Virus record (IMG/VR): IMGVR_UViG_3300028827_000102
Location: 1 to 64,000 of that record
Strand: one strand, 5' to 3'
Source of the DNA: a virus
Length of the DNA: 64,000 nt
This document shows positions 12,534 to 60,770 of this stretch, one piece after another (position 1 is the first letter of the stretch; every line of letters begins with the position of its first letter). Position numbers and translations under genes: made by a program. Under the pieces are notes generated by a model that was not told the DNA's origin, did not search any database, and saw only the letters and a list, made by a program, of their open reading frames with translations.

Positions 12534-15500
12534 TATGATCTCCTAGAAGCTGGCTTACGTGTATATGTATCCATTCTACCTTGTGCAGTATCTTTATCAA
12601 CTTTAGCATCTAGTCTATTAGCAATACGAATGGTAGCATTTTCGTTCCTCCTGGAAGGTATTCCGGAGTAATGCTTTTCCAGCGCTGTTGTAAGTTGTAA
12701 CTTACATTCTTTTACAGCAGAAATTCTATTTCTTCTTCCACGTTTTCGTCTAGCCGCTTTTTTACAGGCATTGTATTTTCTAAAAATGTTTAAACGTTCT
12801 TTTAAAATAACCGTAGACCCGCACAAAGAATATCTTTGAGTTGATCTATCTGGTCTGTATATATAAATATCATTTACATATTTATAGTATTTTCTGTAAT
12901 CGCTGGTAAGTGTTGGAAGTATTTCTTCTGGTTTAAAGAAGAAAAATGGGTTTGTAAATAAAGCATCTCCACGTAGTTTTACTGTTCTATAAAACCTATA
13001 ACGCAGGTTATCTTTTGTTGGCCACGAGGCCGGACGCATTAAATAGTCCAATGCATCGTCAACTGTTTCGATTGGTTTTTTGCCCTGTTTTCTTCTATGT
13101 TCATTTATTCTATTAAAATATCTTTGCCATTTTTCGCTCATTTTGTCTGATTTTATATTATTACCAGTGACCTTCATGGCGAGCATGGTGCGCATATATT
13201 CTCTATTTGCTTTTAATGTTTCTTGGAGTGCGCTTTGATCTGTACGTTTACTGTTGGTGTGTATTAACATTTCTACATGTACATGGTAAGTACTTGAATT
13301 GCCTGTATTACCAACATAAGCTATTTTTTCTCCCGCTTTAGGTAACCGCGAATAACCATGTAAACCAAAATAATAGTTACTTCCAGAAGGCTTTACTACA
13401 TCGTCTAAATGTCCAAAACGAAGTGTAACGTATAAACTTTTAGAGGCATCTCCTGGAAGTGTTACAGATCCGACCACCTCCATAAACATTCCTATTTTTG
13501 TGCTGTATCCTTTTGGATTCAATCTTGGCGTAGCTGCTCCGTTACTATACTTCTTGAATCGTTTTAGCATACCTTCGTCCACTACCACTTCCAAGAAACC
13601 ATCGCCCACATCTTTTGGTTTAGTGCCCTGTATTATAAATGGAAAAAGGGAAGGAAATTTTGTTACATGTACTCTATATTTTTTCTTTTGATTAGTGCGC
13701 CAACCAGCTGGTATACCTAATATACATATTGTGGGTTTTATTGGTGTATGTATAGGTGTGCCTTTAGGAGCTATTAAATCTACACCATTATGCCACGAAA
13801 ATCTGCTTTTGTAGGCATCACCCACACCACGCACAGGACCATAATTTGAAAATACAGACGGATTCCCTTTTACTGTAGCTGGTCCGCCTAACACAAACCC
13901 ATATGGATATGGGTTGTAAAACAACCTTCTAACGTCGTATATTGGTTTGTCTCCTTCGTGTTTTTTGGCGTTACCGTCGTGTAAACCAGTGTCTTTTGTT
14001 GTTATTGCTTCTGCCTTGTCGCCTGGATTAGGAGGTTCCCTGCTTACTCTTGTACCAACAAAACCACCGTGCAATCCATGTAATAGGTATTTTGGTATAT
14101 CTCCAGATTGCCCAGCAGCCCCTGCGGTAGATCCCCCATATGTACTAGCCACCCTAAACTGAGACAATCTGTCAACTGAAAATGCACTCGCTTCTATATA
14201 ACGATCTCGAAGTAATGGGCCGCAAGACCAATTAGTATTACGCATATCTCTTACGCTATGTCCCGACGCATCAGATATGCTTTTTGCTGCAGCTCCCATA
14301 CTTCTACCCAATGTTCTATGTTCTACGGCTTTCCGCGCGCCCCATCTCATATTGTACTTTATATCTCCGGTAAATAGACCAGAGTAATCGATAGGCATTC
14401 TAGATCCACCTGTTATGGTTCTAAATGTTCCATCTCTAAACAACTCTTTCACATACGAAACATTCATGTCTACAGTACAATTACCATCAGGAGGGGACAT
14501 AGAATAACTTACATTTTTTATCATACCGATACGTTGTCTGGGTACTAAGTGAATGGGTCTATTTGGTAACAAATAAGGACGAAACGGTATCTTTATCGAC
14601 ATGGATGACATTTGTCCCATGTCTTTTTGTATTTCAAGGTAGGCATAAGCTAGTAAAGACGCGACACCCGCATTTGCCGAAATTAAACCACCTATTCCTG
14701 GTATTTTCACATTTATCTGTTTTACTTTTGCTCCTATTCTTTGTGCTAATATTGGGGCCACAATTACTTTTTTCTTGAACAGATTTTGTACTAATTGATT
14801 AAATGCGGCTTTTTTAGTTTCGTCGTCTTCTTCTCCAGTCAATACCCAAGCAGTGTACATCGGACCAGTTTCTGGTGTTATTCTGTCTGATATTAATTCC
14901 TTTGCTACTTTATAAGCACCAGAAAATACCTTTCCCCAATCACTAGGAAGACCGTTATACATGGGGAACTCAAATATCATATCCCCCATAGGAGACACAT
15001 AAAACTGATAATCTAATGTATCTGATATCGCATTTAGTAATGACAATCTTGTTTCATATCTGTAACTTCCTTCTGTCCCGGTAGCATGGCCTATATTTTG
15101 ATGTACGATAGTTGCCGCTCCAGTGCCGCTTTTAGGCAATAACATATGTACGAAGCATTGTAGAGGTGAAAATACAGCACTTTCACTCCTGTCTGACACA
15201 GTACCATGCCCAATTGCACTCACTTCACGATAAGTAAACGGTCTGCCTATTATACCAAACAAAACAGTTTTGTTCCATGCCTGCATCTTTCTCGTATCGT
15301 ACTTATCCAAATCTAATTCTATCCCCATAGAAGTAGGCAGATGTGTGAGTGTAAGCCACTTAACGGCTGTTTCATATGACATACCAGCTAGAGGGTGCGA
15401 GTCTCTAGACAAAGCGTTTACCAAATCTTGGTACATTCCTGCATTTTTTTCATTAAATTGTGCGGCTGTATGGACAAAATCGGCCTTTGTTCCTCCAGCT

Positions 15501-17743
15501 TCACTTTGCTTCACTGCGTCTGATTGTCCTTTTGTGTGTGCTTCCCTCAACTGTCTACGTAATTCTTGTATTCTTCGTTGTCTGCGTACATTTGGGTCTC
15601 TTTTTTCTTCTCTGGTTACTTTTGCTTCTGCATCCTTAAATGCTTTTCTTACTGTCTCAAGACGTGAATTTAGTTCTTTAAGCAGATCCGCTTGCTTGTA
15701 TTTTAATGAGCCAAGAGCACCTTTTACGTATTTTTCGTTATATTCAGTAAGAGCTTGAATGAGTCCATTATTCATTTCAGGTGTTATATATCGATATACA
15801 GTATCCTTAAACATTTTATTGGCATTGAATACAATCAATGTACCAGATGTGTCCACATATTTTTTCAGATACTTTTCAAGCTCCCGTCTAGATTTTTCAG
15901 CGAAATCTCTTTTTCCTTTTGCTCTGGGCAGATTTGACTTAAAATTCTCTACCTTTTTTGCTACATATGCACTTAATAACAATGATACATCATTATATTG
16001 TGGCCAATAATAACCTGAGTAGTTTTCTATAAAATTTTGTTCAGACCTAGAATCATTAGGTAAAAAAGCAGTGGCAAAATTACTACTTCCGCCTGCTATT
16101 TTCCGTATTGCGGATTTTGCAGATATGTCTTCTCTTTTATCCCAACTTAGTTGTTTTTCCAAATCATTATCGTTTATATTTTTAAGAAGATCGTCTATTA
16201 TAGTATAAACAGGACCATAATTATTATACAATAGTCCTTCTATTTTCTCTTTATTGCTTGCATTTGGGTTTGCTTTGATCTTTGACTGTGCTGTTTTGTA
16301 TGCAGCGCTCACTGTTTGCGCAGCAGATATTATTTCTCGTCCTTTTGTGTGTAAAAATCCTATTAATTCTGTTATAGATTTGCCGAGGTCTATAGGTTTT
16401 GCATCACCATAACTCAATTCCAGTCTGCCCTTACTTTTGGGCTTCATTACTATCTTTCTCTTTCCACCGTCTACTTTGTTTGCTTTATCAATAACATCTA
16501 CCGCATTTTTATAAGCAGCGTAAAATTCTTTTACTTGAGCTTGTACTTCTCCCTTCGTTTCAGCGTACACTTTTTTAGCACAAGCGATATCGTATTTTCC
16601 GTCTTTTTTACAATTAGCCGCAACAAGTCTATGTTCAAATAAGGAATTAAATAGTCTTATAAATTCTACCGCTATTTCCTGATTGTCTATATTCCTCAAC
16701 CACGCTAAATCTATACCAAGTTTCTTAGCTTCAACAAAAACAGGACTTGTTTCTATCTCCCTTTGTACGGCATCTTGTAATGAATTATCTCCTTTTCCGC
16801 GTTTACCCTGATCATTGGTACTACTTATGGGAGATGCTTGTGTACGTACCCTCATTCTATTAAGTATTCCGCGAATATCGTAACATTTTATATTTATTTG
16901 TCTGTCTCCATTTACAAAATCATCTATTATATCATACTCGTCTATAAATCCAGTAAAAGCCGGTACCCATAGTTCGTTGTATCTTATTATTTTTCCATTT
17001 TTCTTTTTTACTGCACCTGCCATATGTGGCAATCTATAAAACACACGTACACAATCATGTTTATTGAATATACATCCATACGGATTAAGCGGATATAACC
17101 ACATACCCGTTTCATCGATTTGTTCGTCTTTGGTTCCTGGACGAACCTTTAAATATTTTTGACGATAAATTTTATATTTTGCCCATTCATCTGTATGGGA
17201 GCTACTTCTATACGGTGAAGTGATTATTCTTCCTTTTTTATCTCGTGCCAACATCCAACCGTGCGAGTTGAGATCTGCGCACACATTCATCGGTGTTACT
17301 ATAAAAGCGTCTTGGTTATTATTCAGAGTAAATGAACATGTATTCATTCCGCCGGTAGATTCTATAGTCCACCTTACGTCTCCACGTAAATATGGAGTTA
17401 CTTCTGCTCCTTCTATAAATACCCTTATTTCTGCGCTATGTACTTTCCAAACACCTTCTCTGTAGGCAATTTGGCTATCTATGCTACACAGATAAGCATT
17501 ATTACCAAAGCTTTTCCCGCCATATATTGATGCAGAAGGAAAACATTTTGGGGCACTTAATACACTACTTTTTCTTCTTCTTAGAATCGACAGCTTTCGC
17601 TGTAAATCACGCTGTTTAGCCATCAATTGCCGGTACCTAGCGGCACCTTCAGCATCGATACTACGCTGTATCTCCCCCCTTAGATTACCGGCTACTATGG
17701 TATTTTTCTCAGATTGACTTTGTGTGGATTGTCTATCGGCCAT
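12533..17743 (-). CDS. Baseplate hub protein fused to an M23 zinc peptidase (virion-associated peptidoglycan hydrolase)
   Basis: Hub-like segments (RVFIEGAEVT, AFTGFIDE, QFYVSPMGDMIFEFP, PFRPYLLPNRP) plus M23 motifs WHNGVDLIAPKGTPI and IAYVGNTGNSSTYHVHVE. Confidence 0.8.
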   Translation of the reverse strand: MADRQSTQSQSEKNTIVAGNLRGEIQRSIDAEGAARYRQLMAKQRDLQRKLSILRRRKSSVLSAPKCFPSASIYGGKSFGNNAYLCSIDSQIAYREGVWKVHSAEIRVFIEGAEVTPYLRGDVRWTIESTGGMNTCSFTLNNNQDAFIVTPMNVCADLNSHGWMLARDKKGRIITSPYRSSSHTDEWAKYKIYRQKYLKVRPGTKDEQIDETGMWLYPLNPYGCIFNKHDCVRVFYRLPHMAGAVKKKNGKIIRYNELWVPAFTGFIDEYDIIDDFVNGDRQINIKCYDIRGILNRMRVRTQASPISSTNDQGKRGKGDNSLQDAVQREIETSPVFVEAKKLGIDLAWLRNIDNQEIAVEFIRLFNSLFEHRLVAANCKKDGKYDIACAKKVYAETKGEVQAQVKEFYAAYKNAVDVIDKANKVDGGKRKIVMKPKSKGRLELSYGDAKPIDLGKSITELIGFLHTKGREIISAAQTVSAAYKTAQSKIKANPNASNKEKIEGLLYNNYGPVYTIIDDLLKNINDNDLEKQLSWDKREDISAKSAIRKIAGGSSNFATAFLPNDSRSEQNFIENYSGYYWPQYNDVSLLLSAYVAKKVENFKSNLPRAKGKRDFAEKSRRELEKYLKKYVDTSGTLIVFNANKMFKDTVYRYITPEMNNGLIQALTEYNEKYVKGALGSLKYKQADLLKELNSRLETVRKAFKDAEAKVTREEKRDPNVRRQRRIQELRRQLREAHTKGQSDAVKQSEAGGTKADFVHTAAQFNEKNAGMYQDLVNALSRDSHPLAGMSYETAVKWLTLTHLPTSMGIELDLDKYDTRKMQAWNKTVLFGIIGRPFTYREVSAIGHGTVSDRSESAVFSPLQCFVHMLLPKSGTGAATIVHQNIGHATGTEGSYRYETRLSLLNAISDTLDYQFYVSPMGDMIFEFPMYNGLPSDWGKVFSGAYKVAKELISDRITPETGPMYTAWVLTGEEDDETKKAAFNQLVQNLFKKKVIVAPILAQRIGAKVKQINVKIPGIGGLISANAGVASLLAYAYLEIQKDMGQMSSMSIKIPFRPYLLPNRPIHLVPRQRIGMIKNVSYSMSPPDGNCTVDMNVSYVKELFRDGTFRTITGGSRMPIDYSGLFTGDIKYNMRWGARKAVEHRTLGRSMGAAAKSISDASGHSVRDMRNTNWSCGPLLRDRYIEASAFSVDRLSQFRVASTYGGSTAGAAGQSGDIPKYLLHGLHGGFVGTRVSREPPNPGDKAEAITTKDTGLHDGNAKKHEGDKPIYDVRRLFYNPYPYGFVLGGPATVKGNPSVFSNYGPVRGVGDAYKSRFSWHNGVDLIAPKGTPIHTPIKPTICILGIPAGWRTNQKKKYRVHVTKFPSLFPFIIQGTKPKDVGDGFLEVVVDEGMLKRFKKYSNGAATPRLNPKGYSTKIGMFMEVVGSVTLPGDASKSLYVTLRFGHLDDVVKPSGSNYYFGLHGYSRLPKAGEKIAYVGNTGNSSTYHVHVEMLIHTNSKRTDQSALQETLKANREYMRTMLAMKVTGNNIKSDKMSEKWQRYFNRINEHRRKQGKKPIETVDDALDYLMRPASWPTKDNLRYRFYRTVKLRGDALFTNPFFFFKPEEILPTLTSDYRKYYKYVNDIYIYRPDRSTQRYSLCGSTVILKERLNIFRKYNACKKAARRKRGRRNRISAVKECKLQLTTALEKHYSGIPSRRNENATIRIANRLDAKVDKDTAQGRMDTYTRKPASRRS

Positions 17744-45043: not shown

Positions 45044-45853
45044 TTAAGATGTAGAGCTAATAAAATCTGGAGGTGTTATGTTATGTTTTTCTAATAATGC
45101 GCGTAATTCTGCCGAATTCAGTCCTAAAGCATTATTCAGCTTTCGTTTCCCATGAAAGCTAGTTATTGCAATTTCAAGTAATTTCTTTGTAGGGATGCCG
45201 AATTCAGATTCTAATCTAAGCTCACTGGGACGTTTGTGTTTGAAACACGACTGACTGCAATAAACAAATCCGTCAGTAAGTTTATAGATATTACCTGTAT
45301 TTCCACAAACCGAACAACCTGTATCGTATATTTTTACCGTATCTGCAGCAGCATCTGAAGCGGCTTTGCGAAGAGCCAATTTTTGTAATTTTGTTATAGC
45401 GGAGTTTGTTATTCTTCTAAATTGCGCTTGTGTGATACCTAACAAAAAACGTATCTCATTTACATCTAAATCCTGTTTGTTTTGGCTATATATGTAACGT
45501 ATTATACAGTTTCCTGTCCATCTATTCATTGTATGAAACATGCACGACGAAACTGTACATGGTACATATATATCTAAATCTATTTCGGTACATTTAAATG
45601 GTTTTACATCTTCTAGACTGTAAACACCTGGGTCTGGGAGATATGCGCCTATGTATTCTAATACAGTTTCTACCGAAGCCGGGCTAATGGCTTCTCCTAT
45701 ATACTGCAATCTAGACAGCAACTCGAAGCACGGACCAGATTTTGTACACGTTTGAATAGTGTCATTTCTTTTGGATAGCTTTTCAACAAGTTTACTTACA
45801 CTTGTACATATGTCGGTAAACTCACAGCGCATATCTCCCAGACCACCTGACAT
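45044..45853 (-). CDS. Transcription factor with a sigma70 region-4-like HTH and Cys (Zn) clusters
   Basis: LDVNEIRFLLGITQAQFRRITNSAITKLQK parallels TLEEIG..LGITRERVRQIE..AL.KL; also CTVSSC...NC and CSVCG...YCSQSC. Confidence 0.65.
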   Translation of the reverse strand: MSGGLGDMRCEFTDICTSVSKLVEKLSKRNDTIQTCTKSGPCFELLSRLQYIGEAISPASVETVLEYIGAYLPDPGVYSLEDVKPFKCTEIDLDIYVPCTVSSCMFHTMNRWTGNCIIRYIYSQNKQDLDVNEIRFLLGITQAQFRRITNSAITKLQKLALRKAASDAAADTVKIYDTGCSVCGNTGNIYKLTDGFVYCSQSCFKHKRPSELRLESEFGIPTKKLLEIAITSFHGKRKLNNALGLNSAELRALLEKHNITPPDFISSTS

Positions 45854-45860
45854 GGTTTAA

Positions 45861-46580
45861 CTATAGATCATCAAGATCTAGATCGTCGTCAGACCACGGT
45901 AAATCGTCCAGGTCGTCATCATTCTCGTCAGCATCATCAAGATCAAAGTCATCCAGGTCATTCAAATCGTCGTCATCTTCTGTATTATTGTCATCGGCAT
46001 CATCGAGATCAAGTTCATCTAGATCATCATTGTCTTCATCTAAGCCAAAATCGTCCGAGTCAGCAGCATCGCTTTCGTCTGCCTTGGTTTTTGCGTCCGA
46101 ATTACTACCCTGATCAGACACATCATTAAAATCCAAATCGTCCAAATCATCCAGATCATCTATGCCCAAACCATCATCGTCGTCCAATACCAAATTTGTC
46201 TGACTGTCCTTTTTGTTTACATTCTTTTCGTCGTCTTTCTTCTTTGCCTCTTCATCGTCCTTCTTCGCCTTACGCTTACGTCCACGCTTACCCTTGGTCT
46301 TCTTCTCCTGCTCTTCCTCATCCTTCTTCGCTTTACGCTTACGTCCACGCTTACCCTTGGTCTTCTTTTCGGTTTTCTCAGCCCTTTCTTCCTTTTTCTC
46401 TGTTTCTACCCTAACATTCTCCTCTACCAACGCAGGAGCAGGCGAAATAGGAAAAGTATATATCTTTACACCTTCTCCAATGTCACCAGAAATGGTAAAC
46501 ATTGCGTCTTTTACTGCTACTACCTTGCCTTTTGTAAGTAGTGTTTCTACCTGACTAGAAGACAAAACAATCATAGACAT
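45861..46580 (-). CDS. Low-complexity protein: small N-terminal domain, duplicated K/R tract and ~110-aa Asp/Leu-rich tail
   Basis: KKTKGKRGRKRKAKKD occurs twice, followed by DDLDDLDDLDF-type repeats to the C-terminus; GGAGGT RBS. Confidence 0.8.
   Translation of the reverse strand: MSMIVLSSSQVETLLTKGKVVAVKDAMFTISGDIGEGVKIYTFPISPAPALVEENVRVETEKKEERAEKTEKKTKGKRGRKRKAKKDEEEQEKKTKGKRGRKRKAKKDDEEAKKKDDEKNVNKKDSQTNLVLDDDDGLGIDDLDDLDDLDFNDVSDQGSNSDAKTKADESDAADSDDFGLDEDNDDLDELDLDDADDNNTEDDDDLNDLDDFDLDDADENDDDLDDLPWSDDDLDLDDL
46258..46367 (-). repeat. 47-bp direct repeat (63-nt period) encoding the duplicated basic tract
   Basis: 46258-46304 and 46321-46367 differ at one position. Confidence 0.9.
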
Positions 46581-49619: not shown

Positions 49620-50115
49620 ACTCTACCTCTTTTTTTAACCGACGATACAGTATTGTATGTAGCCATTTACAAGGAGGCAATGCTACTAAAACATTGTCTC
49701 CTTTATCTACGAATTTTAGATTCTTTATCTTAATTCTATTAGGAAAGCTGTCCCATACCGATATAAATTTGTTTATCGAGCTATCGTAGAAAAACCTATT
49801 TACATACTTTGTCGGTATTTTTAATTTATTTGCCAGCATTGTGGCTACATAGTAGCCAGTATCATCATGTATGTCATAATCACAACATAAACACCACAAC
49901 AACACGCAAGACAGTCTTAAATGCTTTCCTTCAGTATGCTGCTTTAGTTTTTTCATAAACAATCCGGCACTCAAATACACTCGTTCATCGTGAATGTCAA
50001 GGACAATATTACCGTCTTTTATATGATATGAACGTACATCTCCATATGTATTTATCACCCAATCTTTAAGTGGTGTGTCTTCCATTCTATGATATAATCT
50101 ATGTATTAGCATCAC
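49600..50115 (-). CDS. Hypothetical protein
   Basis: 171-aa ORF coupled to the sbcC stop. Confidence 0.62.
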   Translation of the reverse strand: MMLIHRLYHRMEDTPLKDWVINTYGDVRSYHIKDGNIVLDIHDERVYLSAGLFMKKLKQHTEGKHLRLSCVLLWCLCCDYDIHDDTGYYVATMLANKLKIPTKYVNRFFYDSSINKFISVWDSFPNRIKIKNLKFVDKGDNVLVALPPCKWLHTILYRRLKKEVEYEHENG

Positions 50116-52562
50116 ACCAACATTGACTTGTCCAGATACGGTTTAAATTTTTCTGGTAGTCCTGTTTTGTACAATTCCGCTACATGTTCGTTTCGTACAG
50201 CCCACCATACCTGATCAAACATATCTTCGTGAACAAACACATCGCGTTGATTGCCAATAACTATTATTGTACCAATTCTTTTGCGTAGATCATGCAGTAT
50301 ACGTAAAAGACTACTGGTACCCTGCGGATCAAGGTTAGAGAACGGTTCATCTACGACTAATAGATTGGTACTTGTTCCTGTATATATTTCTTTTAAATCT
50401 CTGATACCAAATAGTAAAGCTAAACCGGCCTTGTTCCTTTCGCCACCACTAAACAACCTGCTTACTACTTCAGGACCACCGTCTTTTCGTCTAAGAGCCA
50501 CCTTTACGTCTGTACCCGACGCCACTAAATCAAGCACCACATTGCGCTTTGGCCACATTAATTCACTATAGCGAGGGACGGTTTTAGTCACAGCATCTGT
50601 AAGTATTCGCTCAAATCGTATACGTTTAAGACCTTTCGCACCAAAAGCCTTTTTTAGTGCTTCTAAACATTTATAACGTTTGCGCACCTCTGTCATTTTA
50701 GCAAGACCTGATACAATCTTTTCTTTACGCTTCATCATAGCATCGTATCTATCTACACTAGCACCTAAATTACCTACCATACGGTCAGCTTCTGTTTTGC
50801 TTTCACGTATACGGTCCAGCTTCAGTTTTGTGTTATGTATAACTTCTCTTAGCTGTTCTATATCACCTGAAGGTAAATCTTTAATCCTATTCCTTTTGGA
50901 AATCATTTCTGTGGCAGCTTCTATCAATGTTTTCTTTTCTTTTATTACTTTTTCATACCGTTTCTTATCTTTTGTTATTTTATGCTGATCGTTTCCAGAC
51001 GGAAGTTCTGCCAATTTTGCTTGTATAGTCATCCTAGAAGCCGCAGCTTCTAATTCTTCCACCAAATTTTGCTCTTTTACCATAAGAGAATTAAGCATTG
51101 TACGAAGAGCTGGCGCATTTTTAGGTGGTTTTGGTATATTCTGAAGTTTTTCTTTTAGCTTGGAATGCTTGTCTGCTGTTTTCAGCGCTTTTGATATTTC
51201 ATTTTCCTGGCGAACAAGCTTTTCTAAATATGCACGACGTTTAGCAAGCCTATGTTTCTTTACTGAAACTTCTTTGTCAGACATATTAAATGGACGATGA
51301 CACGTCGGGCACACATCACTCTTTAGGGCTCTATTAAGATCATCTATCTCTTTTTCAGTCTTTGCTATTTCGCCTGTTAAATCTTTCCATTGTGCCCTTA
51401 GTGCCGTTATATCCATGTCAGGAATAGGACCAAGAGCTTTAATTTCTTCAGCAATCTCTATTCTACGCTCTGCGTTGGGTATATAAACATCTTCTATTTT
51501 TTGTATTTTCTTTCTAACGCTTTTTAAATCATCTTCTATTTCGTCTTTATCTCTTGAATCGGGCAATGCTTCTAATCTTGTCTTCAGTGTAGCAACTCTT
51601 CCTATGGCATCTAAAGCAGCTTTGCATTGTTCTACTTGCTTTATTGCATTTTCATAGCTGACCGACAATTTTTCAACATATTCGTCATCTATATCATCTA
51701 CAGAACCTACACCAAAATCAACACTGCTCCATATTTCTTCTATTTCTTTTTGTATTTGATTATATTCTTTTACTTCACGTAATCTATGCTGTAAACGATT
51801 CAACCGTTTTGTTCCGACAGAAAATTCTTTATCTAGACGTTCTGCTTCTTTTCTATAGTAAGCCAGATCCTCTACCAGATCGTACATAGACTTCCCAAAG
51901 CTATCCAAGGCTGCATTAACATCTTCCAACTCTCGTTCGAGTTTTTCGGCATCCCTGAGTACTATTTTGTCGGTAACTAACATAGATTTAGTCTTCTCTA
52001 GTAAATCATCATATACATCTAGAGAAAACATTCTCATCAGACTTTGTTGTCTTTCACTATCTGTTCCTGACAGCAAAACATTATTATAATCTTGCGGTAA
52101 ATAAACAAGACTGAACAAAGATCTGTCATCTAATTTTGTAATGTTATCTACCAACCATTTGGTAGGGTGTTTTCTTGCAGAAGAAGGTAGTATATTATCG
52201 CCTGTGGCAAGATCTATTATACGAAAGGAATTTCCATATTTTCCGTGGTTTCTGTACTGAACAATTTCGTATTTATGTCCATCTACAGATAAATGTAAAT
52301 GTGCCTCATAGTTTCCGCCAGATTGTACATTTATCACATCAGATACAAATGTGCGTTCGCTTCTACCAGTACCTTTTCCGCTTTTTCCTACTAGTAAATG
52401 AGAAAAAATTTCAAATGGGCTGGTTTTACCGGCTCCTAGAAACCCACCATCATCTACATTCAATCCACGTAAAAGCACCAACCCCTGATTCTGCAGCGGA
52501 ATATCACATGTTTTGTACGCATAACCATTATTAAACCAAAGCTTTGTGTATTCTACTCTCAT
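50112..52562 (-). CDS. sbcC: SbcC/Rad50-like SMC ATPase
   Basis: GAGKT, YLPQ, long coiled coils with a CPTC zinc hook, FSGGE signature, VVDEPF. Confidence 0.93.
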   Translation of the reverse strand: MRVEYTKLWFNNGYAYKTCDIPLQNQGLVLLRGLNVDDGGFLGAGKTSPFEIFSHLLVGKSGKGTGRSERTFVSDVINVQSGGNYEAHLHLSVDGHKYEIVQYRNHGKYGNSFRIIDLATGDNILPSSARKHPTKWLVDNITKLDDRSLFSLVYLPQDYNNVLLSGTDSERQQSLMRMFSLDVYDDLLEKTKSMLVTDKIVLRDAEKLERELEDVNAALDSFGKSMYDLVEDLAYYRKEAERLDKEFSVGTKRLNRLQHRLREVKEYNQIQKEIEEIWSSVDFGVGSVDDIDDEYVEKLSVSYENAIKQVEQCKAALDAIGRVATLKTRLEALPDSRDKDEIEDDLKSVRKKIQKIEDVYIPNAERRIEIAEEIKALGPIPDMDITALRAQWKDLTGEIAKTEKEIDDLNRALKSDVCPTCHRPFNMSDKEVSVKKHRLAKRRAYLEKLVRQENEISKALKTADKHSKLKEKLQNIPKPPKNAPALRTMLNSLMVKEQNLVEELEAAASRMTIQAKLAELPSGNDQHKITKDKKRYEKVIKEKKTLIEAATEMISKRNRIKDLPSGDIEQLREVIHNTKLKLDRIRESKTEADRMVGNLGASVDRYDAMMKRKEKIVSGLAKMTEVRKRYKCLEALKKAFGAKGLKRIRFERILTDAVTKTVPRYSELMWPKRNVVLDLVASGTDVKVALRRKDGGPEVVSRLFSGGERNKAGLALLFGIRDLKEIYTGTSTNLLVVDEPFSNLDPQGTSSLLRILHDLRKRIGTIIVIGNQRDVFVHEDMFDQVWWAVRNEHVAELYKTGLPEKFKPYLDKSMLV

Positions 52563-53671
52563 AGGTCTTTTGCCAAATTCGCCAGTTTAACCGCTAACAC
52601 TTCCAATATAACTTTATTGTTTGTGTAATATGTCTTTATTCTTTCCTGCTCTCTGGTACAAAGATCAAGCATTTCTGCTATTATACTGGCCTTAGTAGTA
52701 ATATTTCCGGATTTGCGGTCAGGTAGTGGGACATTTTTTAACATGAATTTCTTTGTCTCGTCCATTAAATTTGGTGAAATCAAATATAATAACAATTGTT
52801 CCAACACTACTATAATTTGTCCGATAAAGTAATCATGTGCAGTTACTTCAGTGCTATAAGCTATAGCTTTACCGAACTTTCCAGACAACACTGAAGCAAC
52901 ATAATGCTGTACAGCTACATAGGTTTTTGTAGCGTCAGATTGCTTGATTATAGCAGGTAGAGCCTTGACTAGATCTTCCCCTGTCTTACCTGCTGAAGCA
53001 ACCTGTGATAGCAAATTTAGAGCGTCTCTAGGATGTCCGTCAACAGCCCGGGCAATCTGTAAAGTTGCTTTAGGAGGTATAGCTATACCTTCCTTTTTTG
53101 CTACAGGCAACAGTAATTTTTTGGCCAAAACTTCTGGCTTAACTGTTTTCAGATAGTATATTAAAGCCCTACTACGTATTGTGGTGGGAAGTACCTCCGG
53201 ATTGGTGGTACATAATATAAATCTGGCTTGACTATGAGGTTTCTCAAAAAGACGCAAAGCTGCATCAAACGCCTGCCTGGTTAGATTATGTGCTTCATCG
53301 ATTATAAAAAACCGATATTTATGTGGAGATCGGTACTTGGCTTGTTGTTCTAAAGCCCGTATAGCATCTATCCCTCTTTCGGATACCTGTTTTTCTACTA
53401 CAGAAGTAGTATCACCACCATAACGAATAGCTTTTATGGTTTGTTTGCAAGAATCACACTTGCCACAAATTTCTCCGTCTGTCCTATTTGTACAGTTAGC
53501 ATATAACGCTATCAACCACGCCAATGTGGTTTTCCCTACACCATGAGGACCACACAACAAAATAGTTGGATTGATTTCATCTTCCAAAGACCCACGAAGA
53601 GACGATACTACGGCATCTTGCCCAACTACTTGAGAAAATTTTATAGGTCTATACTTTGCTGTAAAATTCAT
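52559..53671 (-). CDS. dnaX: DNA polymerase III gamma/tau-like clamp-loader subunit
   Basis: KYRPIKFSQVVGQ, GPHGVGKTT, CGKCDSC, IIDEAHNL, TIRSRA, GHPRDALNLL. Confidence 0.94.
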   Translation of the reverse strand: MNFTAKYRPIKFSQVVGQDAVVSSLRGSLEDEINPTILLCGPHGVGKTTLAWLIALYANCTNRTDGEICGKCDSCKQTIKAIRYGGDTTSVVEKQVSERGIDAIRALEQQAKYRSPHKYRFFIIDEAHNLTRQAFDAALRLFEKPHSQARFILCTTNPEVLPTTIRSRALIYYLKTVKPEVLAKKLLLPVAKKEGIAIPPKATLQIARAVDGHPRDALNLLSQVASAGKTGEDLVKALPAIIKQSDATKTYVAVQHYVASVLSGKFGKAIAYSTEVTAHDYFIGQIIVVLEQLLLYLISPNLMDETKKFMLKNVPLPDRKSGNITTKASIIAEMLDLCTREQERIKTYYTNNKVILEVLAVKLANLAKDL

Positions 53672-54669
53672 TCATTCACCTCTATCAACATTTTTCTGGC
53701 TATTTTTTCTGCCATAATAATCATATCTTGTTGTAGGTTTTCTTTTTCTAAGAACTCGTGGAGGTGCATAAGCGGATCTTCAAAAGACGATTCATACTTG
53801 CCATGCACCTTAACTGGAGGTTCATAGATTATATTGTCAGGCAAGACTACATTAGGATCAAGCTCTTTTTGTGGCTTTAATTTTAAGAATTCAGGTAAAT
53901 CATCACCTTTAAATTCATCCCAAACAACTAGAGGATATGGATGGTTGATGCGAACAAATTTTGGTTTTGCTTTGCCTGTGTCTACGATAAGAACGCCTTT
54001 ATTTTCATCCTCACCAAAATTTACCTGATGTGGCGATCCTGGATAATAAGCGTTGTCAGATATCTTCTGCCTTTTGTGTATATCACCAAGAGCCCAGTAT
54101 ACTATATCTGGCACATGGGGTATTTTGATTTGATTTGATTTTATTACCTTTGTACCATTATCCGTCACGGCTCCTGTAACAGCTTCGTGCATAACCGCAA
54201 TTATAGGTTTATTGCTTCTTGTCCTTATCTTTTCCACCATAGATTTTACTACTATATCAAAGTCATATCCAGACCAACCATGAAAAGGTAACAATAAAAA
54301 CACAACATCATTTATTTCGACAAAATCAGGCAGACCGTCACATATAACATGTTTACCAATAGGTAAATGAGACAGATAATTAAGAGCCGTATCACCAAAC
54401 TTATGTGATACTCTTTGATCATGATTGCCAGAAATAGCTATAACCGGTATAGGACAAGAATGCAACCAACCAGAAAATAACAATCTTTCGCTGTTTGTTA
54501 AATCCGGTCTATCCCAAATATCGCCAGATATAACTATAGCTTCTGCTTTGTATCTATTTGCTATGGCTGTTATTTTGTTTAGTGTAAATTTGTGTCTTAT
54601 AAGGTATTTACCAGGAAACTTTGCCCTTAGACAGTTTAAATGTAAATCTGCAGTGTGTAAAAATCTCAT
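53668..54669 (-). CDS. sbcD: SbcD/Mre11-like metallophosphoesterase nuclease
   Basis: HTADLHL, SGDIWD, SGNHD, MHE, ALGDIH, YPGSP. Confidence 0.93.
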   Translation of the reverse strand: MRFLHTADLHLNCLRAKFPGKYLIRHKFTLNKITAIANRYKAEAIVISGDIWDRPDLTNSERLLFSGWLHSCPIPVIAISGNHDQRVSHKFGDTALNYLSHLPIGKHVICDGLPDFVEINDVVFLLLPFHGWSGYDFDIVVKSMVEKIRTRSNKPIIAVMHEAVTGAVTDNGTKVIKSNQIKIPHVPDIVYWALGDIHKRQKISDNAYYPGSPHQVNFGEDENKGVLIVDTGKAKPKFVRINHPYPLVVWDEFKGDDLPEFLKLKPQKELDPNVVLPDNIIYEPPVKVHGKYESSFEDPLMHLHEFLEKENLQQDMIIMAEKIARKMLIEVNE

Positions 54670-54923
54670 AGGTCATTTTTACGTATGGCTGTACGGTAGT
54701 TGTCAATACTACGCAAGGCCGCTTTTGTTATCAGTTTGTGTACTATTCTAGCCAATTCATCATAAAATTCGTCATCTAGTACCCTCATGCCCATACTATG
54801 CAACAAAGAGTTAACTTTACTTTTATTAATTAAACGTGATACATTTCCATCTTTGGCCCATTTTTTAGAATGGCGTTTTACGGTTACTCTGTCTTTTATT
54901 TTTTTCTGTTCTGAACCATTCAT
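54666..54923 (-). CDS. Histone-fold protein (bacterial alpha3-truncated type) with a basic N-terminal extension
   Basis: LINKSKVNSLL-HSMGMRV-LDDEFYDELARIVHKLITKAALRSIDN-YRTAIRKNDL gives alpha1, L1 (MRV), a long alpha2 and the L2 R-x6-D clamp, as in HMf RKTIKAED and Bd0055 RKTVMARD. Confidence 0.8.
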   Translation of the reverse strand: MNGSEQKKIKDRVTVKRHSKKWAKDGNVSRLINKSKVNSLLHSMGMRVLDDEFYDELARIVHKLITKAALRSIDNYRTAIRKNDL

Positions 54924-55126
54924 TGTATTTTTTGCTTGAATTCTCTATACGTAGTTATAAGACTACGTATTTCATTTTCTTTAGATAAGACAAATGCTAG
55001 TGTTAATACCGAAGCGGCTACGGACATCAAACCAGTACGTACCTTATCAAACAACTCAAACGGAGATGGATTGTGGTACATATTTATTGCATAAGATGGA
55101 AATGTATGCGATTGTTTATCAGACAT
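54920..55126 (-). CDS. Small hypothetical protein with a hydrophobic helix
   Basis: 68 aa; GLMSVAASVLTLAFVL; ATGA-coupled to the histone-fold gene. Confidence 0.55.
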   Translation of the reverse strand: MSDKQSHTFPSYAINMYHNPSPFELFDKVRTGLMSVAASVLTLAFVLSKENEIRSLITTYREFKQKIQ

Positions 55127-55127
55127 G

Positions 55128-56282
55128 CTATTCTCCCTCTACTTCTACAGAATCATCTGTGCCGTCTAAAGCGTAGTTTTTATATCCTAGTAGCTTAAAA
55201 TGTCGTCTATATACAGCATCCTTTTTTAGTAGAGAAAAACAATAATTTCGGAATTCGTCGCTCTCAGCTACTTTTCTAAATGCATCCCAAGCTAGATATT
55301 TGTCTGTAAAAAACTTTTTAAGCAGTATTTTATTTTTTCCCTGTTTTCTTTCCACCATTCCTATTGCTTCTAGGAAATCTAGACCGTCTTGAGCTTTATC
55401 TATGCCCTTGCCCATTATAATGTCTAATTCAAACTCTTGAAAAGCGGGGAAAGTCTTGTTTTTTATTGTCCTTACCCATACATGTTGGCGATACATACCA
55501 ACTTTATCTTCTTCGGCTTTCTTTCTACCGTGTACTCTAATTGCATAATCAGGATAATACTTCCAAGCCTGCCCTCCTGTAGGTGCTTCCGGATTAGCAC
55601 CAGGCATACGCATATTTATATTCATACGTATCTGATTAGAAGCTATCATTATGGCGCCTTTGTGTGCCAGTAATGATTTAGTTACGCCAAGAAAACGAGA
55701 ATGCATTCTAGCTTCTAATCCAGCTGCACCTTCTCCCGTTTCCACATCTCTACTCTTAGAAAACATGGCAGCGACACTATCCAACAAAATCAAACAACTT
55801 GGTTTATTTATATCATGCAAATTCACATCCGGTAGACGTCTAAGAAATCTATGTAGATGTTTATATACCCCTTCACCTGTTTCTGGTTGAGCATAAAAAT
55901 ACGCAGGAACATTCTTTCCGTTTATTTCTATTGTTTTGTGTATATCTAATCCTTGTGTACGCATATAAACAGGATCGGCTGAATGTTCTGTATCATAATG
56001 AACAATCGGAATATCTAACTTTTGTCCAGATATCGCACAAGCTTGTAAAAATGTACTTTTTCCGGAAGCTTCTGGACCGTATATATGCACTAGCCTGCCA
56101 CACTGAAAACCTCCACCTAACTTCAGATCTGCTATGAGAGATCCAGTAGACAGGGCTTTATCTACACGATGTGCTTCTCCCAACGAAACGCAACGTATTT
56201 CATCTTTTGTATCATTAAATGCATCTACTATAGCTGTTACCGGATCGGTAAATTCTATATCAGACTTTTTCTTTCTCGGCAT
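55128..56282 (-). CDS. recA: RecA/UvsX recombinase
   Basis: STGSLIADLKLGGG, IYGPEASGKST, DTEHSAD, AQPETGE, LDSVAA, NQIR, TGG. Confidence 0.95.
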   Translation of the reverse strand: MPRKKKSDIEFTDPVTAIVDAFNDTKDEIRCVSLGEAHRVDKALSTGSLIADLKLGGGFQCGRLVHIYGPEASGKSTFLQACAISGQKLDIPIVHYDTEHSADPVYMRTQGLDIHKTIEINGKNVPAYFYAQPETGEGVYKHLHRFLRRLPDVNLHDINKPSCLILLDSVAAMFSKSRDVETGEGAAGLEARMHSRFLGVTKSLLAHKGAIMIASNQIRMNINMRMPGANPEAPTGGQAWKYYPDYAIRVHGRKKAEEDKVGMYRQHVWVRTIKNKTFPAFQEFELDIIMGKGIDKAQDGLDFLEAIGMVERKQGKNKILLKKFFTDKYLAWDAFRKVAESDEFRNYCFSLLKKDAVYRRHFKLLGYKNYALDGTDDSVEVEGE

Positions 56283-56386
56283 TACACTACCTTATCATTT
56301 TCTAGATCTATGCACATCGGTAGCCAGAAGCAATTGGCGCATACTTCTTCTTCTCTATACCTGCCATAACAAGCAGGTTTACCCCT

Positions 56387-57469
56387 TCAATCAAAAGTTA
56401 GATCGTCATCGTCATCGAAAGAAAAATCATCAAGGTCGTCAGAAGAATCGGAAGAATCATCGTCATCATCATCGAAAGAAAGGTCATCGTCATCATCATC
56501 GAAAGAAAGGTCATCGTCATCATTCTTATTTTTTGCCTTCTTTTTATTGCCCTTATTGCTTTTATTGCTCTTATTGCCTCTTTTTCTGCTGCTATTTTTC
56601 TTAGTATTTGTCTTCTCTTCGTCTACAGTATCTTCGTCATCAAAAGAAATGTCATCAAGATCATCATCATTGTCAGTATCAAATTCAATATCGTCAGAAG
56701 ACGTGCCAGACACAGATACAGACACAGGAGCCCCAGTAGCTTTAGCTAAAGCAGCGTAACACCCCAACGAGTGTAACTTCTGTTCCAACACATCTGAATC
56801 TATGGTTTCTATTGAATCAAGCAAATCTACTAGTACGCCTTTATGTACCTTCCCCCCTAGCTTACATACATAAGCATCCTTATTTTCAATGTATTTCACG
56901 GGGAGACGTTTTCCTGTGGATACGAATTTGTATTCTACTCCACTCATATATGGATTGCTGCTCTTTTGTGCTAGCCATGTGAGCACTACACCACGCTTGT
57001 CGTCGTCAACAGAAGAACCTATTGCTTCTGCTATTCCCTTAAGTTCCTTCCACTCCAATACGTTCATATTTACCAGGCCCCACTGCTCGTCCGCGTTTTT
57101 CTTTATATTTGTGATGTGGAAAGCATGAGCCAAGTATCTGAAACTCTGAGGCATACGCAACCACTCAAAATCATTTCTCACGTCTATATACTTGTGGAAA
57201 TTGGCGCATATGGGGCAACCATTATCGACACTGGTAGCCTCAGCTATATCCCAATTTGGACATAAAGTATAGAATCCCTTTAGATCGTTTGATCCCTTTG
57301 GAACAAACTTGACGTAGTGTGTAACTATGGTAGCAAATCCACCTACCAGCCTAATCTGTACCGGCTTTCCAATAGACGGTCTAGAAAGCAGAGGAAGCAT
57401 TTCATCCCAACGTGAATCCGACTGCTGCCCAGGAACCTCTCCCATAGAACGGAAACCCTTTTTTCTCAT
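56387..57469 (-). CDS. ssb: T4 gp32-like single-stranded DNA-binding protein with a long acidic/basic/acidic tail
   Basis: QIRLV...THY...LCP...GCPIC (gp32-type Zn ligands), acidic tail ending DDDDDLTFD, upstream of recA. Confidence 0.75.
   Translation of the reverse strand: MRKKGFRSMGEVPGQQSDSRWDEMLPLLSRPSIGKPVQIRLVGGFATIVTHYVKFVPKGSNDLKGFYTLCPNWDIAEATSVDNGCPICANFHKYIDVRNDFEWLRMPQSFRYLAHAFHITNIKKNADEQWGLVNMNVLEWKELKGIAEAIGSSVDDDKRGVVLTWLAQKSSNPYMSGVEYKFVSTGKRLPVKYIENKDAYVCKLGGKVHKGVLVDLLDSIETIDSDVLEQKLHSLGCYAALAKATGAPVSVSVSGTSSDDIEFDTDNDDDLDDISFDDEDTVDEEKTNTKKNSSRKRGNKSNKSNKGNKKKAKNKNDDDDLSFDDDDDDLSFDDDDDDSSDSSDDLDDFSFDDDDDLTFD
56457..56523 (-). repeat. 27-bp tandem repeat (about 2.5 copies) encoding DDDDDDLSF
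   Basis: TCATCGTCATCATCATCGAAAGAAAGG at 56457 and 56484, partial at 56511. Confidence 0.9.
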
Positions 57470-58889: not shown

Positions 58890-59495
58890 ATGCCAATAAC
58901 AAAAAAATTTGATATACCGCAACTCACACTAAAACATATACTAAAATATTCAAATGTGAGTCCTGTTAAAAGTACAAGCGGACAGCGACTTAAATCGCCC
59001 GCGTCTAGAGTGTCTGAATGTACCTTGATATCTCATCAATATAGTACAGGTTCGCGCGATGGTTTCAGACGAACTAGACATAAATATCCTACCATGTACA
59101 ACGAATTTCGCGGTCTTGTACGTTGCAGCGGAAGCGGTAAGAAACGTTACACATATATCCGTTTCTATGGGCCTCCATCTCTAGACACTCCTGTTTGGGT
59201 GTGGTGTAGCTGTGAACATTTTGCTTACACCTATGAATGGGTTTTAGCAAAATATAAATCCAGTACTATTAGTGCGGGATACAATTCTGTAGGTGTGTCG
59301 ATACGCCCAGAACCGCCACAAATACGTAACCCAAATAAGTACCCAGGAGCGTGCAAGCATATATTGCTAAGTGCCAAATATGCTTTGACCAAAAAGGACC
59401 TTATAGAGCAAAGGGAAGCATATGTGGCGGATCTGAAGCGGGCACGCCGCAATAAGATTTTACAGCGTGCCCGCCCCATCAAGCTTATCCGTTAA
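58890..59495 (+). CDS. SWIM zinc-finger protein
   Basis: VWVWCSCEHF...GACKHIL (CxC...CxH). Confidence 0.8.
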   Translation: MPITKKFDIPQLTLKHILKYSNVSPVKSTSGQRLKSPASRVSECTLISHQYSTGSRDGFRRTRHKYPTMYNEFRGLVRCSGSGKKRYTYIRFYGPPSLDTPVWVWCSCEHFAYTYEWVLAKYKSSTISAGYNSVGVSIRPEPPQIRNPNKYPGACKHILLSAKYALTKKDLIEQREAYVADLKRARRNKILQRARPIKLIR

Positions 59496-59817
59496 CCGAC
59501 GTCATATCATCATTTGCCAAATCGATACGAATGGAGTGCGAACGGACAAGAGGACCGAGCATAGCCTTCACCACTGTTCGCAAAGAACGAATGGTTCTAC
59601 CGTCGCCACCAAGAAACGGACCCCTATCCTTTGGATGCAAATCAAACTCCAGAACCGTCACTCTGCTAGTGCGCATGATACGCACGGTAGCGTCCTCTGG
59701 ATGCTTGGCGATATGATATGCTAGCAACATTACGATCTTTGCAAGGCTAAGGTTGCGCATATCTTCAGTAACCATGTCCTCAAGTCGGTAAACACCATCA
59801 GTAATAGTATCAGTCAT
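59485..59817 (-). CDS. khpA: KhpA (YlqC/UPF0109)-like KH-domain RNA-binding protein
   Basis: IAKHPEDATV...VLEFDLHPKDRGPFLGGDGRTIRSLRTVV versus the KhpA consensus LVDHPEDVxV...LxVxPxDxGKVIGKxGRTxxAIRT. Confidence 0.85.
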   Translation of the reverse strand: MTDTITDGVYRLEDMVTEDMRNLSLAKIVMLLAYHIAKHPEDATVRIMRTSRVTVLEFDLHPKDRGPFLGGDGRTIRSLRTVVKAMLGPLVRSHSIRIDLANDDMTSVNG

Positions 59818-60770
59818 TGTACCTCTCCTTCGTCTATTTTCTGAGAAGTTTCGATTTTCCGTTCCGCTGTCCTATCTTGCGGTCTCTTGTCTTCTGGATA
59901 CACCTCGTCGTGCAAAAGGGTTTCAAGCAAAGGGGAAAAGCACATCTGATTAACTTCACAATATCTCGCTGTTGGGTCTCCCTGACTAGTACATACACCT
60001 ATCGGAGCGTTTGGTTGTTTCAAACTGTCTTCCGCTGTTTTTATCAGGGCCATTGTCTCTCTGTAAACCCTACGAGATACCGGCATCTGTATCGGTACCC
60101 ACCCTTTCCAATTCCAAGGTGTACCTCTGTCAATATACACTATCACAACACTGTTTATTTTTTCTACTTTTCCTAGATCTTGACCTCCTATGTTTATTGC
60201 ATTGGCATAGCAATTAACTTGCACATAGTGCTTTGGGTACGCACTTCTACTATTACGTATCTCGGCTAGCTTGTCAAGGGAAGATCCCTTAAAATCGACC
60301 AGCACATTGTGTCGATAGCTGTCAAAACTAAGAATCATATCTATGTGTCCGGTGAAAGGAACTTTACGATTTTTTGTGATTGCATATTCATGGTACATCA
60401 TTTCTTTTCCACACACCGAACATTTTTGTATACCTAGTTTATGCTTTTTTATCTTCTTACATTTTCGACAGACCCAACAACCATAAGCATTGTTAGGCAA
60501 CATTATTCCGAACCATCGTTGTAGAGCTATGTGTAAAGCCGTGCCTTCTAATGTGGCTGCGTCGCTTATAAACGTATCCTCTGTTTTCGGTCTTTTACTT
60601 AATGGCAAATGTCTATAAATATAGTATTTACGCGGACAGATTGGTAAACTACTTGCTCTCTTTTCCACCCTAAAGGGTACATCGCTTTGCCGTCTTCCCT
60701 TTCTTACACGCTCTAGGGCTTGCGCTACCCTACCATCCAATGCTATACTACCCGGTAGTTGGATTTCCAT
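59814..60770 (-). CDS. Cas4-like PD-(D/E)xK exonuclease with Fe-S cysteines and an inserted Zn ribbon
   Basis: ASSLPICPRK, GTALH, GHIDMIL, VDFKG, QVNCY, C-terminal C...YCEVNQMC; CRKC...CSVCG insert. Confidence 0.8.
   Translation of the reverse strand: MEIQLPGSIALDGRVAQALERVRKGRRQSDVPFRVEKRASSLPICPRKYYIYRHLPLSKRPKTEDTFISDAATLEGTALHIALQRWFGIMLPNNAYGCWVCRKCKKIKKHKLGIQKCSVCGKEMMYHEYAITKNRKVPFTGHIDMILSFDSYRHNVLVDFKGSSLDKLAEIRNSRSAYPKHYVQVNCYANAINIGGQDLGKVEKINSVVIVYIDRGTPWNWKGWVPIQMPVSRRVYRETMALIKTAEDSLKQPNAPIGVCTSQGDPTARYCEVNQMCFSPLLETLLHDEVYPEDKRPQDRTAERKIETSQKIDEGEVQ
60720..60749 (+). promoter_or_regulatory. Host sigma70-like promoter for the primase gene: TTGCGC-18 bp-TATACT with extended TGn
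   Basis: -35 at 60720-60725, TG at 60741-60742, -10 at 60744-60749; lies antisense inside the Cas4-like gene, about 46 nt before the primase ATG. Confidence 0.5.

Follow-up and report, generated by a model that had tools for sequence, protein, structure and literature searches.

A histone gene within a phage recombination operon

The window analysed here, bases 1-64000 of the 108,580-bp IMG/VR virus record IMGVR_UViG_3300028827_000102, carries on its minus strand the gene for an 85-residue histone (P0001), set among genes for recombination and replication enzymes. Read along that strand, the genes encode a probable single-stranded DNA-binding protein (SSB) of the gp32 type, a RecA/UvsX-like recombinase, a 68-residue open reading frame (ORF) termed orf68, the histone, an SbcD/Mre11-like nuclease, a clamp-loader ATPase and an SbcC/Rad50-like ATPase (Table 1). 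These are the seven ORFs marked out in an earlier sequence-only reading of this DNA, and all of them are present on the minus strand at the positions given there, from 56387-57469 down to 50112-52562.

Identity and fold of the histone

On its own, P0001 gave no match in Pfam or PHROG, and as a single sequence it matched the PDB weakly (E 0.33 and 0.53). An exhaustive search of 1.8 billion representatives returned three short relatives, and a profile search added three more. Comparison of a four-sequence profile (A1) with the PDB gave much stronger matches, to the bacterial histone HLp (9qt0; E 2.8e-9, profile positions 25-79 against chain residues 10-64), to archaeal HTkC (9f2c; 5.8e-7) and to Bdellovibrio HBb (8fvx/8cmp; 0.02). 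Residues R49, N53 and R55 of HLp lie at its tetramer interface, and R55 together with D62 makes the so-called RD clamp (PMC12701072); the role of the tetramer-interface residues is also described in PMC11390915, and bacterial-dimer histones are without them. The equivalent residues of P0001, R71, N75, R77 and D84, are invariant across the 24 sequences of a larger alignment (A2). The chain of P0001 (R77-T-A-I-R-K-N-D84-L85-stop) ends one residue past the clamp aspartate, as in HLp (R55...D62-F63). Truncation of alpha3 defines the superfamily; the alpha3 histones were defined, and phage members of it noted, by Schwab et al. 2024 (PMC11390915). At the start of alpha1, K34-S35-K36 of P0001 aligns with the DNA-contact motif A13-S14-K15 of HLp. 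A single-sequence AlphaFold2 model of P0001 (predicted local distance difference test score, pLDDT, 73) has helices at residues 34-43 and 51-82, and its best Foldseek match is HLp, with an E of 2.2.

Judged by its profile matches and signature residues, the 85-residue ORF is an alpha3-truncated face-to-face (FtF) histone of the Bd0055-HLp kind, carrying the RD clamp, the truncated alpha3 and the tetramer residues by which FtF histones are recognised; the earlier call of this ORF as a histone is thereby upheld. Residue conservation further predicts that P0001 most likely forms a tetramer and binds duplex DNA.

The histone fold occupies residues ~29-85 and is preceded by a basic extension (residues 1-28) with nine Lys or Arg residues. 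Within the extension, at P0001 residues 16-25, is a K-[W/F]-x(2-4)-D element that is kept in all six tail-bearing relatives (P0005, P0007, P0009, P0013 and P0014 among them) and is absent from a tail-less archaeal family. This element is predicted to be helical, at low confidence, and the N-terminal extension of P0001 may therefore be structured.

Overlapping genes and probable translational coupling

The four junctions that chain orf68, the histone, sbcD, the clamp-loader gene and sbcC (54920-23, 54666-69, 53668-71 and 52559-62) each read ATGA on the minus strand, just as had been reported. A fifth 4-nt overlap, GTGA at 50112-15, follows sbcC, and the chain then runs on through a 20-nt overlap and a further ATGA (48855-58) to the ligase gene, which it meets with an overlap of 8 nt. 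Crude gene calling over the record (108.6 kb) placed 4-nt overlaps at 12 of 101 same-strand junctions, half of them (6/12) within this 6-kb chain. At that frequency one would expect ~0.02 runs of four such overlaps per genome, and ~0.002 runs of five; the clustering of overlaps beyond chance is real, although not dramatic.

Shine-Dalgarno (SD) sequences are present before orf68, the clamp-loader gene and the gene for the probable SSB, and none was found upstream of the histone, sbcD or sbcC starts. Together with the overlaps, this pattern fits termination-reinitiation coupling in two units, one comprising orf68, the histone and sbcD and the other the clamp-loader gene, sbcC and the 171-residue ORF. 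No terminator-like signal above background was found on the coding strand, and the counts of promoters and terminators did not differ from those in shuffled sequence. Since neither the histone gene nor sbcD has an SD of its own, we infer that the histone is co-produced with these enzymes. The proposal of the sequence-only reading that it is made together with strand-invasion, end-processing and clamp-loading enzymes is thus a reasonable one, given also the tightness of the block and the lack of any terminator excess. No family match was found for orf68 in Pfam, in PHROG or in further family searches.

Table 1. Minus-strand genes from the sigma-70-like factor to the acidic 239-residue protein, in their 5' to 3' order on that strand (values after family names are E values; pI, isoelectric point).
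Feature	Length	Position	Strand	Family matches	SD and junctions	Other features
Sigma-70-like factor	453 aa	57488..58849	-	PF04542 (region 2) 6.2e-10; PF04539 (region 3) 4.9e-6; phrog_351 1e-25		First gene of the minus-strand run
Probable gp32-type ssDNA-binding protein	360 aa	56387..57469	-		SD AGGAG	Core of ~245 aa; tail of ~115 aa with K-rich patch and Asp-rich repeats
RecA/UvsX-like recombinase	384 aa	55128..56282	-	PF00154 1.8e-35; phrog_97 (UvsX-like) 9.6e-50		
orf68	68 aa	54920..55126	-		SD GAGGGAG; start 1 nt past recA stop	One hydrophobic segment
FtF alpha3-truncated histone-fold protein (P0001)	85 aa	54666..54923	-		No SD; ATGA overlaps on both sides	pI 10.2
SbcD/Mre11-like nuclease	333 aa	53668..54669	-	PF00149 (Metallophos) 6.3e-11; phrog_100 9.3e-25	No SD; ATGA-coupled to histone gene	
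Clamp-loader ATPase (DnaX/gp44-like)	370 aa	52559..53671	-	PF13177 9.8e-26; phrog_5846 1.9e-55	SD GAGGT	
SbcC/Rad50-like ATPase	816 aa	50112..52562	-	phrog_77 3e-60	No SD; ATGA-coupled to clamp-loader gene	
Three ORFs	171, 254 and 248 aa	48112..50115	-		Continue the overlapping chain (GTGA, 20-nt, ATGA, 8-nt into ligase)	
ATP-dependent DNA ligase	508 aa	46593..48119	-	PF01068 1.2e-19; phrog_114 3.7e-71		
Low-complexity protein	239 aa	45861..46580	-			pI 4.1; small N-terminal domain, twice-repeated K/R-rich 21-aa unit, long Asp/Leu-rich tail

Enzymes encoded alongside the histone

Their profile scores place the RecA/UvsX recombinase, SbcD, the clamp loader (DnaX/gp44 type) and SbcC securely in their families. 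SbcD and SbcC have the make-up expected of an SbcCD/Mre11-Rad50 pair, namely a calcineurin-like phosphoesterase and an SMC-type ATPase with a long coiled-coil insert. In SbcC the phrog_77 match spans residues 4-770 and the N- and C-terminal ATPase halves lie 480 residues apart; matches to SMC_N, AAA_23 and SbcC_Walker_B fell under the Pfam cut-offs. The clamp loader shows the AAA+ module of the DNA polymerase III delta-prime/gamma type, with a lid domain (PF22608, 1.5e-5, under the cut-off).

The three ORFs between sbcC and the ligase gene gave no family or PDB match, and the ESM Atlas was uninformative for the 254-residue ORF. A sliding clamp or a small clamp-loader subunit was considered among them and found no supporting match, and no sliding-clamp gene was identified among the operon ORFs searched. 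Residues 350-442 of the ligase gave weak sub-threshold Pfam matches to AID/APOBEC-like 'NAD1/NAD2' models (E 0.005-0.008), which are probably spurious.

Recurrence of the linkage in other phages

Linkage was counted over four phage records, namely the window and the loci L062, L063 and L064; the contigs of P0005, P0007, P0009, P0013 and P0014 (2-11.5 kb; that of P0013 being the one of 11.5 kb) stood outside this count, as did a 163-kb contig on which a protein identical to P0001 is encoded. L064 (IMGVR_UViG_3300023444_000001), a complete phage of 82 kb, has terminal repeats, and its genes run DnaB, primase, PolA, gp32-like SSB (Pfam gp32, 6.7e-4), histone, ORFs of 103 and 107 residues, RecA and ATP-dependent ligase (9386-13921 from PolA onward). 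Its histone is a 63-residue FtF protein; the histone gene is separated from the SSB gene by 12 nt and from the genome's sole RecA gene by 0.66 kb, and carries its own strong SD (AGGAGG, spaced 6 nt from a GTG start). The RecA proteins of L064 and the window are 27% identical, and the two histones give no BLASTP alignment with each other. A tblastn search (E <= 1) of the 20 kb surrounding the L064 histone returned no homologue of SbcD or SbcC; it did not extend to the rest of that record.

In both histone-bearing phage records that have RecA, the histone gene thus lies within 0.7 kb of it, and in both of these divergent phages it lies within 1.5 kb of the gene for a gp32-like SSB. With the null restricted to the replication module, we estimate the joint chance of histone-RecA adjacency in both phages at a few in a thousand, a post hoc figure with n = 2.

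Outside these phages the arrangement was not seen. Among 114 inspected FtF histone loci, which are mostly archaeal or presumed archaeal, none had recA, sbcCD or a clamp-loader gene within 6-10 kb. Searches of GenBank phages by tblastn with P0001, P0005, P0007 and P0015 gave no match; P0005, P0007, P0009, P0013 and P0014 were not found in scans of viral contigs (IMG/VR), and a wider viral scan with alignment A2, using an NVSGDFAD-type pattern, gave no matches either. The same was true of a metagenome scan with P0005 and a genome-contig scan with P0013. A genome-contig scan with P0007 returned only histones of Woesearchaeota/Nanoarchaeota, and among the matches listed for its metagenome scan only the tail-less family appeared.

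The tail-less FtF family, of 54-56 residues and with the motif NVSGDFAD, is abundant and highly conserved. It is typical of metagenome-assembled genomes of Woesearchaeota/Nanoarchaeota from groundwater and sediments, with one match labelled Planctomycetota (L081). Histone doublets were also encountered: a single frame of ~119 residues at L062:9821-10174 holds two tandem FtF folds (a pseudodimer), and doublets are found in the Woesearchaeota loci L034, L125 and L127 as well.

The probable SSB and a second acidic protein

No homologue of the 360-residue protein, labelled ssb in the sequence-only reading, was found by Pfam, PHROG, PDB (even at E 5-10) or tblastn, or among 5.8 billion clusters searched. 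The ESM Atlas related it to clusters of the gp32 family (features 0.93, 201/256; structure template-modelling score 0.68), in which 18-49% of members carry PF08804. Its residues H51/C70/C85-P-I-C88 resemble H64/C77/C87/C90 (CPVC) of T4 gp32, with similar flanking strands, in a comparison made by eye with no statistical test. Alignment by hhalign to T4 gp32 and three gp32-like SSBs covered the CPxC segment only, at a probability of ~2%, and neither BLASTP nor hhalign gave a significant match to the L064 SSB family or T4 gp32. A single-sequence AlphaFold2 model (pLDDT 33) was unusable. The label stands as probable on the evidence of the ESM Atlas, the His/Cys3 motif, the Asp-rich tail and the position just upstream of recA, although formal profile comparison was not significant; we consider a gp32-type SSB the probable identity with reasonable assurance.

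The tail of this protein contains LSFDDDDDD units encoded by a perfect 27-nt x2.5 tandem repeat (56457-56523). In the 239-residue protein encoded past the ligase gene, for which no homologue or family was found, the duplicated K/R-rich 21-residue unit is encoded by a 63-nt x1.9 tandem repeat (46248-46367, 94% identical). The SSB tail and the 239-residue protein share a design, a basic patch followed by Asp/Leu-rich repeats, and both look recently expanded. Histone proteins of the H1/Hc1-like kind from 'moraphages' (PMC12619734) belong to a different protein family, to which the 239-residue protein gives no match.

Both acidic proteins had been proposed as factors for deposition or eviction of the histone. 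They are encoded in the same minus-strand run and each carries the basic patch and long Asp-rich repeats, and eukaryotic histone chaperones typically contain acidic stretches. T4 gp32, however, likewise ends in an acidic tail, and because acidic gp32-type tails bind partners in the replisome and in recombination, that of the SSB needs no histone-related explanation. The 239-residue protein has no detectable relatives and is encoded 8 kb away from the histone, while the tandem duplications within the tails are recent and typical of low-complexity drift. In L064 the SSB has a short acidic end only, and no comparable acidic protein is encoded at the locus. The chaperone proposal therefore finds no support.

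Comparison with known histones and phage systems

Viral FtF histone-fold proteins (VFFHFP), with a lysine-rich N-terminal tail of 5-40 residues and found in Caudoviricetes, were described in 2025 (PMC13681535). Like these, P0001 has an FtF-type fold, the predicted tetramer signature and the lysine-rich tail, and comes from a tailed phage known from metagenomes as an IMG/VR record; by its sequence features it is a VFFHFP. That study contains no genomic-context analysis for recombination genes: its co-occurrence analysis concerns chromatin-type domains, and the terms RecA, SbcC and recombination do not occur in it (PMC13681535). The sequence-only reading knew of no described system with this arrangement, which is true of the position in a recombination operon and not of the protein class. 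The novelty lies in where the histone sits, in a recombination operon whose genes look translationally coupled, and in the single independent recurrence of this linkage; this is not yet evidence of a new system.

Among cellular histones, HLp of Leptospira perolatii (PDB 9QT0-2) is the best profile match, having in common with P0001 the RD clamp, the tetramer residues, the chain end and the aligned K-S-K motif. It differs in being encoded on a bacterial chromosome, beside smc, and in having 63 residues and no tail; in L. interrogans it is both abundant and essential. P0001, by contrast, is encoded by a phage and has a 28-residue basic extension and other L1 residues. When expressed in E. coli, HLp reorganises the nucleoid (PMC12701072). 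HTkC (PDB 9F2C) and the tail-less histones of Woesearchaeota/Nanoarchaeota belong to the same alpha3 FtF family as P0001; unlike it they are cellular, mostly archaeal and without a tail.

The enzyme set resembles that of phage T4, which has gp32, UvsX, gp46/gp47, gp44/62 and gp45. In T4 the genes 47 (SbcD-like) and 46 (SbcC-like) are split by the small ORFs 46.2 and 46.1 and are followed by genes 45, 44 and 62. The insertion of dnaX between sbcD and sbcC, to which attention had been drawn, is confirmed as to order and is less unusual than supposed, since the T4 pair is also split. The window differs from T4, which has no histone, in placing the clamp-loader gene between sbcD and sbcC and recA adjacent rather than 10 kb off. 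The T4 small ORFs 46.1, 46.2 and 45.2 were considered as hidden relatives of the histone or orf68 and show no similarity to either.

A functional parallel is offered by TF1 of the large lytic phage SPO1, a small, basic, duplex-DNA-binding architectural protein of the HU type that acts on phage DNA in replication and transcription. Like TF1, P0001 is a small basic protein of a large phage, with duplex binding and an architectural role predicted; TF1 has the HU/IHF fold, which is unrelated to the histone fold.

A proposed role in recombination-dependent replication

We propose that the long minus-strand operon supplies the parts for T4-style recombination-dependent replication, with a probable gp32-type SSB, UvsX/RecA, SbcD/SbcC, a clamp loader and an ATP-dependent ligase. 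Coupled translation would run from orf68 through the histone gene to sbcD, the histone being made at the same time and in the same place as the recombination enzymes. By analogy with HLp and HTkC, P0001 would assemble as a tetramer and bind duplex DNA without sequence preference, helped by its basic extension. Its substrate would be the intracellular phage DNA, where it may organise or bridge double-stranded stretches of concatemers as these replicate and recombine, the SSB and RecA taking the single-stranded parts. Its role would then be that of phage HU-type proteins such as SPO1 TF1, fulfilled here by a histone fold. As a whole, the explanation that an FtF histone is co-made with the enzymes of recombination-dependent replication and acts on phage DNA has, in our judgement, an even chance of being right.

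Several observations weigh against it. The linkage is seen in two of the four phage records and was noticed post hoc. In both, the histone gene is embedded in a large module for DNA metabolism, in which replication and recombination genes are the likely neighbours of any gene. L062 (IMGVR_UViG_3300019755_000003), a complete 48-kb record with terminal repeats, has its histone doublet and no RecA; in L063 the histone lies among genes for a ParB-like protein, a nucleotidase, thymidylate kinase (Tmk), UvrD and ThyX, with no RecA in the fragment. The closest GenBank relatives of L064 (Bacteroides phage BS162P1 and a human-gut phage scaffold) encode the SSB and no histone, which is therefore an optional add-on. 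A protein that coats the genome would be expected in very large amounts, and the absence of an SD speaks against this. At the level of the protein, the L1 DNA contacts T27 and G29 of HLp are replaced by V48 and D50 in P0001, beside the acidic run D50-D51-E52. Finally, superposition of the P0001 model over 49-50 residues (HTkC, Z 5.3, root-mean-square deviation 2.2 Å for 50 residues; HLp, Z 5.0, 2.6 Å; HBb, Z 5.0, 2.2 Å) gave Z values of ~5, which is the background level for helical models, so that the model is consistent with the fold and not proof of it.

The sequence-only reading suggested that the histone coats or organises phage DNA. Organisation fits an FtF histone in a recombination operon; bulk coating is made less likely in the window by the missing SD, although the L064 histone has a strong SD. 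The synteny found here is divided, with the histone between a gp32-like SSB and RecA in L064 and no such linkage in L062, L063 or the 114 mostly archaeal loci.

A lesser though substantial possibility is that the linkage is incidental, the histone being an optional, horizontally acquired nucleoid-associated gene that has come to rest in a tightly packed operon and does a generic job such as compaction or silencing of the host nucleoid in the course of takeover, or help with packaging. The distribution of the gene is sporadic, with no match in GenBank phages and none in the closest relatives of L064, and half of the histone-bearing phage records (2/4) are without the linkage. Overlapping starts and stops are common in the record, at 12% of junctions, and the effect of HLp on the E. 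coli nucleoid shows the kind of generic activity that such a protein could have. Against this, two very divergent phages have the histone <=0.7 kb from their only RecA gene and <=1.5 kb from a gp32-like SSB gene, and in the window the histone gene, itself lacking an SD, is flanked by coupled genes for enzymes and does not belong to a block of small early genes.

Histone-fold proteins can serve as cofactors of repair and replication enzymes in eukaryotes, as MHF1-MHF2 does with FANCM and Dpb3-Dpb4 with DNA polymerase epsilon. It is conceivable, although we think it doubtful, that phage FtF histones are recurrent, dedicated partners of SSB/RecA-type recombination-dependent replication, each a duplex-binding cofactor that is produced along with the enzymes, in the window by translational coupling, and acts on recombination intermediates. 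Such a cofactor might, for example, hold or bridge duplex arms so that SbcCD can process them, UvsX can carry out strand invasion or ligation can proceed, with the K-[W/F]...D element as a docking surface. If so, it would be a prokaryotic-virus counterpart of MHF1-MHF2 and Dpb3-Dpb4. The narrower form of this idea, in which the histone serves the recombination machinery as a dedicated accessory subunit that binds duplex DNA (its partner being SbcCD, UvsX or the SSB tail) and not as a bulk chromatin protein, we regard as unlikely. Coupling to sbcD without an SD of its own suggests enzyme-like stoichiometry, the adjacency of SSB, histone and RecA is seen again in L064, and the K-[W/F]...D element, being conserved, may mark a structured surface for interactions and not a floppy tail; the existence of eukaryotic histone-fold repair cofactors provides a general precedent. 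The L064 histone, however, has its strong AGGAGG, the search of the 20-kb L064 locus described above revealed no SbcD or SbcC, and the tetramer and RD-clamp residues match those of free-standing FtF histones.

The full model of the sequence-only reading, in which the histone shields phage DNA from host nucleases, restriction enzymes and Cas nucleases with the Asp-rich SSB tail and the 239-residue protein as chaperones, appears very improbable, as no result points to shielding, the missing SD speaks against coat-level abundance and the acidic proteins are explained otherwise or have no relatives.

To return to the proposed role in recombination-dependent replication, the locus yields a concrete hypothesis, that a phage histone is made with, and maybe works with, the enzymes of this process. 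We know of no phage histone-fold protein whose function has been demonstrated, and structure predictions were the basis of both surveys by which these proteins were defined. If the link holds, histone-fold proteins would serve DNA repair and replication machines in bacterial viruses too, besides eukaryotes; if it fails, P0001 would be one more phage nucleoid-associated protein.

Source phage and further genes of the record

CheckV estimates the record as ~31% complete. With 108.6 kb at that completeness, the source is a very large tailed phage, and the presence of baseplate wedge protein and head-tail connector genes confirms that it is tailed. A sigma-70-like factor, a bacterial-type clamp loader and RecA together indicate a bacterial host. 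The GC content of the window is 35-41%. The minus strand carries most of the genes from ~20 kb to 71 kb, with products in DNA metabolism that include helicases, DnaB, ribonucleotide reductase, dCTP deaminase, two topoisomerase II subunits and a 963-residue DNA polymerase. No DNA-level relative of the region was found in the GenBank phage collection. Its clamp loader, SbcC and RecA are ~30% identical to those of deposited GenBank phages, so that these three proteins reveal no close relative, and a scan of viral contigs found no close kin of the clamp loader.

The sigma-70-like factor that heads the run of SSB, recA and histone genes has ~220 N-terminal residues without assignment before region 2. 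A 269-residue ORF at 45044-45853 gave a faint sigma-like PHROG match (E 0.067). Just upstream of the sigma gene region, at 59485-60770, are genes for a small KH-domain protein of the KhpA/B type and a Cas4-like PD-(D/E)XK nuclease (phrog_1706, 2e-19). At 12533-17743 the window encodes a protein of 1736 residues in which nothing was detectable except a short metallopeptidase motif around residue 1470; this is probably a giant protein of the virion or associated with the tail.

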